Notes: generated from the letters alone by a model not told the origin. A DNA stretch of 64,000 bases from Candidatus Uhrbacteria bacterium (GCA_026395055.1 JAPLZK010000002.1:256154-320153); one strand, 5' to 3'. Shown: positions 25,011 to 36,381, counted from the first letter of the stretch. Made by a program: numbers and translations.

Positions 25011-28000
25011 ATGACCAATACAACAAACTTGGTAAAGAAAGCTTTCTCTGTTGCAGTGGCTGCTACAACCATTCTTTGGTCTGTCGGTCTCTCAGCCTTT
25101 TTGCCAGTTGCAGCATCTGCTGCTACATTCGGCGATTTGATCAAGGGAACAACTCTCTCTACTGTTTACTACTACGGTTCTGATGGACAACGCTATGCGT
25201 TTCCAAACGAAAAAACATACTTTAGCTGGAATAAAGATTTCTCCGCAGTGAAGACAATCTCTGACGCTCAACTCGCAAGTATCACTCTTGCAGGAAACAT
25301 CGCGTACCGCCCAGGTGCACGTTGGATCAAAATCACAAGTGACAAAAAAGTTTACGTTGTTTCAACAAGCGGAAAAATCCGTTGGGTTGAATCAGAAGCA
25401 GTAGCTAAAGGACTCGGCGGAGACAATTGGAACGCTCACATCGATGACGTTCCAGATGTATTCTTCGTTGATTACACCGTTGGCGACTCTTTGACTTCAG
25501 CAGTATCCGGATATGACGGAATGCTCTGGTCTGACGGAACAACAAAATACCTCGTTGCTGGTGGTAAGTTCCAAAAAGTAACAGATGCTGGATTTGCAGC
25601 CAATGGCTACAACGCAGGATTTGTTCTTACAGGAACTGGCTTCACAAAGTCAGGACTTACAGCTGGAACAGATATTACTGCTGCGATGTCTAACCTCACA
25701 GACGCTGCACAAAAAGTAACAACACCTACGTACGCTGTTTCACAGAACGTATCTGTTGCGCTTTCTGCATCTTCACCAGCTTCTTCTACCCTCGTTGGTG
25801 GACAAGCAATTGGAAACGTGATGGCTCTTGATTTCACAAACCCAACTTCCGCACCTGTTTCCGTAAAGAGCCTCAAGCTCGCACGTACAGGAGTTTCTGC
25901 TGACTCTACACTCGTGAATACATATCTTTTTTCTGGATATACACGTTTGACAGACTCAGCAACTGTTTCATCCGGAGTTCTCTCTTGGAATGACGCAGCT
26001 GGAATGTTCACCATTCCTGCAGGAGGAACGGTAACAATCAACGTACGCTCTGATATTGCAAGCGTAAGTGGACAAACTCTCGGACTTAAGCTTGTTTCTG
26101 CAAGCGATGTCGGATTTGTTGGTGCATTTGCTGCTGCGGGAACATTCCCAATCATGAGTGCTATTCACACAACCGCTTCAGCTTCAATGGCAACAGCTTA
26201 CTTCGGTACAACTCCAACTCCTTCATCTGACACGGCACCAGCGCCACAATCAGACTTGAAGCTTTGGGAGGATAACTTGACTGTTGGTGGAACAAACGGA
26301 GCTTCTTTGTATGCTCTTCGTTTCCGCAACACAGGTTCTATCAACGCAGCTGATGTAAAGAACTGGCGCTTGTATGTTGCTGGAACCCAACGTGGAGCAG
26401 CTGTTGCTTCACAAGATGCAAACGGATACATCTCTTTTGATCTTTCCGCTGCTCCAGTAAAATTGACAACAAACACACACACCGTCAAATTGGTTGCAGA
26501 CGTTATTGGAGGATCATCACGCACAGTTTCTATTGGTTTGCGCAGTGCAGCCGATGCTGTGATCGTTGACGCTGACTACCAACAACCAATCTTGGTAACC
26601 ATTACAAACACAACAACAGCATTTTCATCTCGTAATGCAAATGCACAAACAATCGCGCAAGGTGATCTTACGTTCTCAAAGCGTTCAGATTCTCCTTCAA
26701 CAGACGTTGTGCTTTCTGCTTCCGGTGCATCTCTTGCACGTTACGATGTAAAAGCTTCTGGTGAACCAATGAAGGTCGAATCTTTGAACTTCAACTTCAT
26801 CCAAGACGCTGATGCAGACTCAGCTTATGCTCTCCGTAACGGTGCTATCTATGCAGATGGTAATCAAATCGGAAATACAACAGCTCTTTGTATGAACAAC
26901 AATACAACAGCTGCTGTATGTACAAACACAAGCTCAAACGGATCTGATGGATCTTCTTACACAACATTCAATTTTGGTTCTTCTTTGGTAGTTTACCCAG
27001 GAACACCAGTATTGCTTGAAGTAAAAGCAGACGTTTATGACTCTGTTGGAAACAACAGTATCGTAGCAAATGACACCATTCAGGTTGTTATTGACGGATC
27101 AAGTTCAAACAACGTTCTTCGTAAAGTTACAGGAACTTACGGAAGCTTCCCAGCTTCAGACGTTCCAGCTGGAATTTTGACCGTTAAGTCTGGTGCATTG
27201 ACAGTGTCTAAAAACACTTCATACGCAGGACAAAGCTTCGTTGCTCCAAAAACAGCTTACAAGATTGGTTCTTACTCCCTCACTTCTTCTTCAGCAGAAA
27301 GCCTCAACCTCACCGGATTTACCGTTGATCTCGATGCTTCAAGCGGAGCACAAGCAGGAGAGATTTCAAACTTGTACGTCATGTACGGAACAGCAGGCAA
27401 CATGACCACACTTGCAACAAAAGCAACGCCTTCATTGGCAGATGCTGGAAACGTATTTGCGGTCGATAAGACTCTTGCGCCAAACACAACAATGTTCGTT
27501 GATGTTTACGCAGATCTTCAAGACCAAGATACAAATGACACAATTATTACCTCATTGGTAGTTGGTGCAAACTCAACAACCTCTGGTGGTGGATCTGTTT
27601 CACAAAACGGTGACGCTGTCGCTGTTGCAGGACAAACCATCGCATTGGCTAATGGTACATTTACCTCTGCCTTAGATGGTTCAACACCAGTTAAGCAAAT
27701 TGCTCAAGCTAGCCAAACGGTTACTGCAGCAAAATACCGCTTCTCTGCAGCAAACGACACTTACACAATCAAAGAACTCCAATTGTCTATTCCAAGTTCA
27801 GCTGCAATTTCTGGTGTTCCAGCTAGTGTAGAAATTTGGGACGGAGGCACAGCACCTCTTGGTACAGCTGTCTTCAACCAAACAAGTGGAGATTCAGTAA
27901 CGAACGGAGCTGCAAACATCACAGGACTCAGCATTGCTGTTCCTGCAAACTCATACAAGATTCTTACAGCAAAACTTGTATTGAACGATGTAGGATTCGG

Positions 28001-34801: not shown

Positions 34802-36381
34802 AGAATATGCGTACTTCTCATTTTCTTGGTTTTTTCTTTCTGACGTGGCTTGTTGCCTCGCCTGTTTTTGCTTTTTCTTCTCCGAACGATCCCTATTTTG
34901 TGGATCAATGGTATCTAAACAAAATTCAAGCGCCAGCTGCTTGGCAAACGGGCACAGGATCGAATGACGTGATTGTTGCTGTTCTCGACACGGGGTTTGA
35001 TTTAGATCATCCAGATCTTGTGCAAAATACATGGGTCAACACAGGTGAGATTCCAAATAATGGAATCGATGATGATGGAAATGGGTTTGTGGATGACGTG
35101 CACGGTTGGGATTTTGTGGATCATAATAATTCTCCAGAGCCTTCTATTTCAACAACGTATGACGAAGGGGCTGTCTCACACGGAACGGTTATTGCCGGAA
35201 TTATTGGTGCGACGACAAATGATGCGAATGGGATTGCGGGAATCAATTGGCATGTAAAGCTTATGAATGTTCGTATTTTGGATAATACGGGTATTGGGAA
35301 TTCAGAAGTTGCGCGAGAGGGAATTGAATACGCGGTAAAAAATCATGCTAAAATTATCAATTTAAGTTTTACAGGATTTGATAATGATCCACAATTAGAA
35401 TCCACTATCAACGCAGCAGAAGAGGCAGGTGTTCTTATTGTTGCGGCGGTTGGAAACACGGAGGGCGGCGGAATCAACGTTGATGAGACCCCCATTTATC
35501 CTGCGTGTGACGGTCACGGATCTCCAGATAATGGCATTATTGGCGTGGCCTCAACAGATGAGACAGATACAAAGTCCACGTTCTCAAATTACGGGGCAAC
35601 ATGCACGGATCTTTCTGCACCTGGAGAAAATATTTTGAGCACCGTCTATCAAAATGATGCATGGCTCCCTTTTGCGAAAGGGTATTATCAAGGTGGCTGG
35701 TCCGGCACTTCTATGGCAGCACCGATGGTTTCTGGTGCGGCTGCGTTGGTTTACGCAACGTATCCACATCTTACTCCACCACAACTAAAAAATGTCTTGC
35801 GACTATCCGCAGATCCTGTTCATGTAACAGGTGTCGCAAGCGGAAAAATGGGAGCGGGGAGATTGAACGTTGCAAATGCTCTGGTTCTCGCAAAACAATT
35901 ATATCCACCAGAAGTCTTATCGGATTCACTTGTAAAACTCCATTGTCTCTCAAACGCATCCGTGAACGATCCGTGCAAAGCGGTTTACTTTTATGCGAGT
36001 GATGGAAAACGACATGCGTTTCCAAATGAAAAAGTTTTTTACACGTGGTTCACAGACTTTTCGAGCGTGAAAGAGGTGTCAGCTGATTTTCTCTCATCCC
36101 TCACACTTGGGAAAAATGTGACGTATCACCCTGGAACAAAGCTTGTGAAGTTTCAAACGGTACCGACGGTGTTTGCCGTTTCGGTCAAAGGAGTCTTGCA
36201 CCCAATTGATTCGGAATCTGTCGCTGTAAATCTCTATGGGCCTGATTGGAATACAAAGGTGGATGATATTTCTGACGTCTTTTTTGGAAATTATTCGATT
36301 GGAAGTAAGATTCAAACAAGCGCAGATTACTCCGTTGCTGAATCCGTCGCATCTGTGAGTGGATTGGATCAGAATTTCTAA
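34789..36381 (+). CDS. S8 family serine peptidase with C-terminal shared surface domain
   Basis: D (VAVLDTGFD), H (HGTVIAGIIGA), S (GTSMAAPMVSGAAAL); C-terminal ...LHCLSNASVNDPCKAVYFYASDGKRHAFPNEKVFYTWFTDFSSVKEV... is homologous to the shared domain. Confidence 0.75.
   Translation: MESIKNMRTSHFLGFFFLTWLVASPVFAFSSPNDPYFVDQWYLNKIQAPAAWQTGTGSNDVIVAVLDTGFDLDHPDLVQNTWVNTGEIPNNGIDDDGNGFVDDVHGWDFVDHNNSPEPSISTTYDEGAVSHGTVIAGIIGATTNDANGIAGINWHVKLMNVRILDNTGIGNSEVAREGIEYAVKNHAKIINLSFTGFDNDPQLESTINAAEEAGVLIVAAVGNTEGGGINVDETPIYPACDGHGSPDNGIIGVASTDETDTKSTFSNYGATCTDLSAPGENILSTVYQNDAWLPFAKGYYQGGWSGTSMAAPMVSGAAALVYATYPHLTPPQLKNVLRLSADPVHVTGVASGKMGAGRLNVANALVLAKQLYPPEVLSDSLVKLHCLSNASVNDPCKAVYFYASDGKRHAFPNEKVFYTWFTDFSSVKEVSADFLSSLTLGKNVTYHPGTKLVKFQTVPTVFAVSVKGVLHPIDSESVAVNLYGPDWNTKVDDISDVFFGNYSIGSKIQTSADYSVAESVASVSGLDQNF

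Follow-up and report, generated by a model that had tools for sequence, protein, structure and literature searches.

In this work we analysed a 64,000-nucleotide stretch (hereafter the window; NCBI proteins MCX6714629-34), which lies on a 339-kb contig of a Candidatus Uhrbacteria metagenome-assembled genome, and, within it, a segment of 131-151 amino acids (aa) common to three secreted proteins, to which we gave the working name DOM. The three proteins are a large acidic surface protein with DOM at its N-terminus, and a BNR/Ycf48-like beta-propeller protein and a subtilase (the second of two Peptidase_S8, or S8, proteins) with DOM at their C-termini. Judged by its sequences, DOM is a previously undescribed, large and Patescibacteria-restricted family, and we consider it probable that it represents a new non-covalent cell-wall anchoring module, playing the role that SLH and CWB2 domains play elsewhere. 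An initial annotation of the window had suggested a common surface attachment of protease, propeller and structural protein; this is supported here by the exchange of DOM for other modules on one scaffold, by its terminal position and by the unrelated extracellular domains to which it is joined.

A module shared by three secreted proteins

The three segments are homologous copies of one module. In pairwise BLASTP comparisons, DOM of the large protein was 46% identical to that of the propeller (E 2e-40) and 43% identical to that of the second S8 (E 6e-37), and the latter two were 64% identical to each other (E 2e-74). The homology claimed in the initial annotation thus holds at E <= 6e-37, with boundaries that agree within a few codons, and its remark that only the two C-terminal copies have a CxxxxxxxxxC pair is also correct, as the C-x9-C loop is present there and absent from the N-terminal copy. 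When all six reading frames of the window were searched (--max) with a hidden Markov model (HMM) built from the three copies, these copies only were retrieved (E 1.1e-64 to 1e-88); no fourth copy was found in the 64-kb window, the next-best match having an E of 0.49. The nature of the host proteins was likewise named correctly, with Pfam matches to PSII_BNR (2.9e-18) in the propeller and to Peptidase_S8 (5.3e-50) in the protease, and none in the large protein, which had no PDB sequence match either. All three DOM proteins begin with typical signal peptides, which points to export by Sec. The two C-terminal copies extend to the last residue of their proteins (...GSISENF in the propeller, ...SGLDQNF in the second S8), and no LPXTG motif, transmembrane segment or charged tail was found at these ends.

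DOM had not been recognised in the initial annotation, and our searches agree with this. No match on DOM was obtained in Pfam (E<=0.1 for the three window proteins, E<=10 for 19 diverse members), in NCBIfam or among PDB sequences (single-sequence and profile searches), there was no PHROGs family but only scattered matches on single members, and full-text literature searches found no paper describing it; the identification of DOM as a known domain was therefore rejected. Neither SLH nor a cell-wall-binding domain nor Big was matched in Pfam, NCBIfam or PDB. In particular, the profiles of SLH (PF00395; same cut-offs of E<=0.1 and E<=10), CWB2 (PF04122), LysM, SH3b, SPOR, choline-binding and other Pfam wall-binding modules, and of the sorting domain Por_Secre_tail (PF18962), did not match DOM, nor did PG_binding_1 (PF01471), whose HMM does pick up the N-terminal part of large-protein homologs lacking DOM.

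The family is large. A word-indexed search returned 316 DOM relatives, and every named match belonged to Uhrbacteria or to the Patescibacteria group. When 1.84 billion cluster representatives were searched exhaustively with HMMER, at least 2,739 clusters (50% identity) passed a cut-off of E<=1e-30. The profile used in this search (269 profile positions) also held the cupredoxin columns of fusion proteins; the count at E<=1e-3 (13,659) is inflated by plain cupredoxins, only the stricter count is used here, and the PDB matches obtained with this profile are matches to its cupredoxin columns. When the retrieved proteins were rechecked with an HMM of DOM only, 260 of 261 were confirmed. Furthermore, a scan of one genome per species yielded 325 DOM coding stretches, from which 76 loci were kept. 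The titles of these loci name Uhrbacteria, Patescibacteria or Parcubacteria, apart from three groups: third-party records of 'uncultured Gammaproteobacteria', a few records titled 'bacterium' or 'uncultured bacterium', and one 5.5-kb contig of a Vicinamibacterales bin. In several of the 'uncultured Gammaproteobacteria bacterium' records (L004, L006, L007, L011 and others) the DOM cluster is arranged as in Uhrbacteria, DOM itself being 64-74% identical, and this gene order (e.g. in L004 and L006) makes the organism label of such assemblies unreliable, apparently wrong or a placeholder. In other Patescibacteria, some large-protein homologs carry a more divergent relative of DOM in N-terminal position (hhalign probability 96.4%, E 1.4e-9, 116 columns), and DOM is therefore part of a wider superfamily.

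Module exchange, partners and putative function

The strongest argument that DOM does the job of a wall-binding module comes from the large protein. Using its body without DOM as query, 120 homologs were listed (34-81% identity, 97-100% coverage) and rescanned with the DOM HMM and Pfam. The N-terminal module was DOM in 64 of them, PG_binding_1 (aa ~42-140) in 18, all from other Patescibacteria, SLH (up to three repeats from aa 36) in two, and another cassette, including the distant DOM relative, in the remaining 36. No DOM was present in the homologs bearing PG_binding_1 or SLH (18 + 2), and the homology of the body always begins just past the N-terminal cassette. Interchangeable cassettes thus sit on one scaffold, and two of them are recognised wall-binding modules. 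Another N-terminal cassette, found in P0322, P0328 and P0344-P0347, consists of three ~65-aa repeats ('GTVWMIxxGxxxxRRAYTSAGAFLSYGF') with no Pfam match; a relationship of this cassette to DOM was not detectable (P 0.02), and it may be a further undescribed type of anchor.

The position of DOM was classified with the DOM-only HMM in 141 representatives. It was found only at the C-terminus (<=10 aa from the end) in 86, only at the N-terminus (a few residues past the signal-peptide cleavage site) in 43, at both ends in seven, and elsewhere or in a mixed arrangement in five. Among the representatives with an N-terminal DOM, 19 are relatives of the large protein of the window (1,135-1,331 aa). The Cys loop tracks position, although not strictly, as it occurs in 72 of the 93 C-terminal and in 9 of the 51 N-terminal copies of these representatives.

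The partners of DOM are unrelated extracellular domains. In a sample of 70 representatives, Pfam identified Ycf48-like BNR propellers (19), Big_13 (18), Big_7 (9) and Big_1 (6), as well as Invasin_D3, PKD, Y_Y_Y, the glycoside hydrolase families GH5 and GH10, SBBP, fn3, GDSL lipase and DUF3048. The word-indexed relatives add S8, SH3_3 and He_PIG, and among them a very common fusion of ~264 aa consists of a signal peptide, DOM and a cupredoxin; some proteins contain little beyond two DOM copies (P0122, 401 aa). This partner range resembles the pattern of SLH and CWB2. Across these otherwise unrelated proteins of many genomes, DOM copies remain 43-85% identical and are better conserved than their passengers, which argues for one common, conserved ligand. 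Aromatic residues make up 13-15% of DOM, and R, K, W and Y positions are invariant, among them R29, W41, K75 and Y123 in DOM numbering; together with the signal peptides and the disulfide loop, we count these as extracytoplasmic features in favor of anchoring. The location of the DOM genes in a conserved envelope cluster beside glycan-synthesis genes is counted likewise.

We propose that proteins with DOM would be exported by Sec and that the module would then fold as two tandem units of ~50 aa, to which many C-terminal copies would add a disulfide-stapled N-terminal loop. The target of DOM would be peptidoglycan or a glycan associated with the wall, in either case a conserved part of the cell's own envelope, and by binding it DOM would hold its passenger domain at the surface. 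In the Uhrbacteria genome studied here it would thereby tether a 127-kDa acidic protein rich in Thr, Ser and Ala, a Ycf48-like propeller and a subtilase, all encoded in one cluster that Uhrbacteria conserve. In a cell without periplasm, the tethering of a small soluble cupredoxin would also make sense.

The large protein itself is probably an S-layer-type protein, and we regard it as a candidate for this role in view of its composition and of the homologs that bear an N-terminal SLH or PG_binding_1. S-layer proteins form the outermost paracrystalline lattice of the cell and are highly abundant. The mature large protein has 1,234 aa (127 kDa), a pI of 4.5, 53% of A+S+T+G+V and two Cys. The signal peptides of its family share the motif K(K/R)AF(T/S)V..V..TI.WS.GL.A and are unusually conserved (K(K/R)AFTVxVVxxTIAWSIGLxA in the window protein and P0138-P0259) in proteins otherwise less than 50% identical, which hints at a specialised export or localisation signal.

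Several known systems offer parallels. SLH, like DOM, is a terminal module of unrelated secreted proteins, being N-terminal on S-layer proteins and C- or N-terminal on secreted xylanases and proteases, which it holds non-covalently at the wall, and it occupies the position of DOM in two homologs of the large protein. Its ligand is a pyruvylated secondary cell-wall polymer, CsaB being the pyruvyltransferase; no PS_pyruv_trans (CsaB) match was found among the window open reading frames (ORFs) scanned, which cover only part of those in the window. SLH and DOM differ in fold, as SLH is a pseudo-trimer, mainly helical, of three repeats of ~55 aa each, whereas for DOM AlphaFold2 predicts two alpha/beta repeats that contain beta-hairpins. 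PG_binding_1 takes the same N-terminal place on at least 18 homologs of the large protein, but it is a helical bundle of ~57 aa without sequence match to DOM, which is alpha/beta and has 130-150 aa. CWB2, which may be N- or C-terminal, serves as the one anchor of a main surface-layer protein, a protease and other proteins; it differs from DOM in its three ~90-aa repeats, its different alpha/beta fold and the lack of a Pfam match between them, so that the likeness is one of analogy only. In Clostridioides difficile, the surface-layer protein SlpA and the protease Cwp84 share CWB2 anchoring. By analogy, the presence of DOM on a subtilase and a surface protein would parallel Cwp84 and SlpA, and also the SLH-bearing S-layer proteins and exoenzymes of Firmicutes.

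Predicted fold and weighing of alternatives

The AlphaFold2 model of the 151-aa copy 2, computed from a 79-sequence alignment, has a predicted local distance difference test (pLDDT) score of 97.2 and a predicted template modelling (pTM) score of 0.87. The model begins with a short strand and ends with a helix; between them lie two similar units (~residues 20-62 and 73-126), each of ~50 aa and predicted to comprise a beta-hairpin, a helix, a strand, a helix and a strand. The comparison of repeat 1 with repeat 2 by hhalign gave only P 0.003-0.011, and the description as two repeats therefore rests mainly on predicted secondary structure.

The prediction, which the initial annotation had proposed as a way to place the module, thus gave a confident fold, and its only resemblance in PDB is to the periplasmic repeats of EccB. 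When the whole domain was compared with PDB by Foldseek, the top ten matches were all to the periplasmic domain of EccB1/3/5 of mycobacterial type VII secretion. A single repeat modelled alone (pLDDT 86) had EccB1/3/5 as 9 of its top 11 matches (TMq 0.51-0.65, rmsd 2.9-5.0 A, probability up to 1.00, best E 0.014); structures of the EccB repeats in PDB are 3X3M, 4KK7, 5CYU, 7NPS and 6SGY. Each unit, of ~50-60 aa in DOM (predicted) as in EccB, has a 4-stranded sheet with two helices, which is the repeat fold described for EccB (~50-57 aa), and the EccB periplasmic repeats have themselves been likened to the wall-binding phage protein PlyCB (PMC4769845). Besides, the best matches in the viral structure library BFVD were small uncharacterised actinophage proteins (E 3e-5, TMt 0.66), followed by weaker matches to phage proteins annotated as CHAP, amidase and lysozyme. 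At sequence level, hhalign of DOM against four EccB sequences from PDB was not significant (P 0.016-0.053 over 22-23 columns) and covered the hairpin motif only, which reads alike in both (VYYYxxDGKRHAFPN in DOM, SMYYIDPQGVRYGVPN in R4 of EccB1). The EccB family PF05108 (T7SS_ESX1_EccB) gave no Pfam match on DOM, EccB was absent from the PDB sequence searches, and no type VII secretion genes were found among the window ORFs scanned. As the profile-profile comparison was not significant, homology of DOM and EccB is not claimed, and the resemblance is retained at the level of the fold. DOM has in common with EccB R1-R4 the repeat fold, a similar-looking hairpin motif and the occurrence in an extracytoplasmic protein of wall-bearing bacteria. 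EccB, however, has a transmembrane anchor and four repeats around a core sheet and is part of a secretion machine, whereas DOM, with two repeats, stands alone as a cassette on many proteins with cleavable signal peptides.

It is tempting to speculate, although here we are slightly more inclined to doubt than to assent, that DOM is a new class of wall anchor made of EccB-type repeats and that it organises a large share of the surface proteins in Uhrbacteria and related Patescibacteria. Among these would be the main surface-layer protein, the proteases that are candidates for processing it, propellers, adhesins, glycosidases and copper redox proteins held by a tether.

Several observations weigh against a function of DOM in wall binding or against the fold argument for it. 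The evidence from module exchange is direct only for the N-terminal copy and extends to the C-terminal copies by extrapolation (43-46% identity), and PG_binding_1 is listed in Pfam as only a 'putative' peptidoglycan binder. On the second subtilase of some Uhrbacteria (L008, L009, L011, L015, L018, L021, L026, L029 and L045), the place of DOM is taken by FG-GAP repeats, which are no known wall anchor, so that orthologs differ here in their C-terminal module. Searches for DOM on phage lysins, where its presence would have lent independent support, found no relative in IMG/VR (pattern and tblastn) or in INPHARED (tblastn, E<=1). As regards the fold, Foldseek of DOM against PDB gave nothing at E<=1e-3, PlyCB (PDB 4F87) was not among the matches, and the ligand of EccB is itself only putative (PMC4769845).

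Other functions of DOM can also be envisaged. It might be a protein-protein co-assembly module, similar to dockerin/cohesin pairs or to an S-layer lattice adaptor, that binds the large protein or another DOM, in which case propeller and protease would be held by the surface layer rather than directly by the wall. This would fit the conservation of the three DOM genes as neighbours in ~20 Uhrbacteria genomes, the composition of P0122, which is little more than two DOM copies, and the fact that EccB repeats pack together in an oligomeric assembly. We nevertheless consider it unlikely, as DOM on the large protein is swapped for PG_binding_1 or SLH, modules that bind walls rather than adapt a lattice, as the family of at least 2,739 clusters occurs in many contexts far from any large-protein gene, and as no separate receptor domain was identified. 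The same exchange with SLH, a binder of the cell's own wall polymer, speaks against a role of DOM in directing hydrolases and adhesins to a foreign surface, as a host-targeting or carbohydrate-binding module for the wall of a host bacterium or for environmental polysaccharide. Patescibacteria are widely regarded as episymbionts, and such a role would agree with this, with the joining of DOM to GH5, GH10, subtilases and Ig-like domains of the adhesin type and with the weak resemblance of the fold to phage lysin proteins. The fusions to cupredoxin and to the organism's own major surface protein, on the other hand, fit retention on its own surface, and the high conservation of DOM across lineages would not be expected if their hosts differ; we hold this function to be improbable.

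The initial annotation had also mentioned a sorting signal, and a DOM that is read, and perhaps cleaved, by a dedicated machine, as are the C-terminal domain of type IX secretion system (T9SS) substrates or sortase substrates, might explain why most copies lie at the extreme C-terminus. The T9SS domain is, like DOM, a C-terminal module on many unrelated secreted proteins, and these include distant homologs of the propeller from other phyla, in which Por_Secre_tail stands at the position of DOM; this shows that propellers of this type are commonly surface-targeted. In 20 of 20 close orthologs of the propeller the C-terminal module is DOM, which in the window protein follows a Pro/Val-rich linker. 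T9SS domains, however, are strictly C-terminal beta-sandwiches of ~75 aa that are cleaved by dedicated machinery, whereas DOM is a highly conserved and confidently folded two-repeat domain of 130-150 aa that in about one third of the representatives is N-terminal, after an ordinary Sec signal peptide, and in seven is found at both ends. In addition, DOM is accompanied by no LPXTG, transmembrane segment or charged tail, and neither a dedicated sortase nor a dedicated transporter recurs next to the DOM genes in the window and related loci. A function as sorting signal is thus disfavoured and appears very improbable to us.

Gene neighbourhood and implications

The coordinates of the DOM copies, their genes and the other features of the window are given in Table 1. 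The order common to ~20 related genomes is DUF5667, the large protein with N-terminal DOM, the propeller with DOM, an S8 with FG-GAP, an S8 with DOM or FG-GAP, and the glycan genes (epimerase, GT2, DUF2304, GT2, GT4, GT4; GT, glycosyltransferase). The initial annotation had suggested looking for co-occurrence with a dedicated sortase or glycosyltransferase; no such sortase is conserved beside these genes, and a GT2/GT4 block is syntenic with the DOM cluster across Uhrbacteria. The cluster lies within a long stretch of envelope genes that includes Wzz, two Wzy_C, several glycosyltransferases, PMT_2 and a type IV pilus ATPase.

Table 1 Positions of the DOM copies and of other features in the window
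Feature	Position	Strand	Description
DOM copy 1	25125-25517	+	aa 74-204 of ORF 24906-28826; N-terminal, directly after the signal peptide; no Cys loop; HMM E 1.1e-64
DOM copy 2	32248-32700	+	Last 151 aa of the propeller protein, to the final residue; C-x9-C loop; copy used for the AlphaFold2 model
DOM copy 3	35926-36378	+	Last 151 aa of the second S8, to the final residue; C-x9-C loop; HMM E 1e-86
Large surface protein gene	25011-28826	+	1,271 aa from M36, probably the true start (nt 25011); MCX6714630.1; ORF 24906-28826
Signal peptide of large protein	25011-25121	+	MTNTTNLVKKAFSVAVAATTILWSVGLSAFLPVAASA; read from sequence
BNR/Ycf48-like beta-propeller protein gene	31240-32703	+	487 aa from M16; MCX6714632.1; ORF 31195-32703; secreted
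First subtilase gene	32690-34801	+	Peptidase_S8 and FG-GAP repeats, no DOM; in the conserved cluster
Second subtilase gene	34807-36381	+	Peptidase_S8, 524 aa from M7; ORF 34789-36381; signal peptide
Extracytoplasmic function (ECF) sigma factor	23386-23940	+	Together with the DUF5667 gene, immediately precedes the large-protein gene
DUF5667 protein	23937-24830	+	Together with the sigma factor gene, immediately precedes the large-protein gene
Wzy_C membrane protein	29009-31189	+	O-antigen ligase/polymerase-like, with C-terminal tetratricopeptide repeats (TPR); between the large-protein and propeller genes
Glycan biosynthesis block	36403-42116	+	NAD-dependent epimerase/dehydratase, GT2, DUF2304, GT2, GT4, GT4
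Second Wzy_C gene	14990-16513		
Type IV pilus/type II secretion ATPase	42823-44685		T2SSE + MshEN
PMT_2 glycosyltransferase	47205-49028		
Wzz/GNVR chain-length protein	4926-5669		
tmRNA gene	433-823		Tag AKNVMAMIKNAFRAPSFAPVFA

DUF5667 is also found upstream of the large-protein gene in L004, L006, L009, L015, L017, L018, L021, L026 and L073, and the last of these has a sigma factor, DUF5667 and a DOM gene together. From this arrangement, the ECF sigma factor and DUF5667 may be a dedicated regulatory pair. The Wzy_C protein with TPR was rejected as a partner in the core cluster, as it occurs only in the closest relatives (L001 and L002) with weak matches in L045; lying between the genes of the Ser/Thr-rich large protein and the propeller, with glycosyltransferases further downstream, it could be an O-oligosaccharyltransferase for the glycosylation of surface proteins. 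Regarding the second subtilase, the NCBI numbering (propeller MCX6714632, epimerase MCX6714634) has room for one subtilase only, and the DOM-bearing S8 (34807-36378) was found only in a Logan assembly; the GenBank record may have left it without annotation or marked it as a pseudogene.

Elsewhere in the window, the region 6000-14500 has a G+C content of 0.57-0.60, compared with 0.41-0.47 in the flanks (up to 0.52 in the transition bin 14001-16000 and in 54001-56000). Four + strand ORFs (8134-9045, 9567-10601, 10810-12627 and 12793-14463) encode a run of paralogous, Cys-rich proteins. Cu-binding_MopE repeats are present in them (PF11617, lowest E 1.6e-35), a Somatomedin_B match was obtained in one, and each ORF has long overlapping antisense ORFs, as is typical of high-GC repeats.

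Patescibacteria (the candidate phyla radiation, CPR) are a large and mostly uncultivated group in which the envelope and the attachment of proteins to the surface are poorly understood. An HMM of DOM would mark thousands of 'hypothetical' proteins of these bacteria as surface-displayed, and a conserved candidate surface-layer protein with its gene cluster is indicated in Uhrbacteria. The occurrence of DOM, PG_binding_1 or SLH on the same scaffold depending on the lineage hints at a lineage-specific wall chemistry, and fusions of DOM to reporters could serve to label these cells or to enrich them from environmental samples. Finally, the link to the EccB fold suggests, in a form that can be tested, what the EccB repeats might do in type VII secretion and, if DOM does anchor proteins through repeats of this type, it would be the first comparative evidence for the EccB-type repeat fold as a wall-binding unit.

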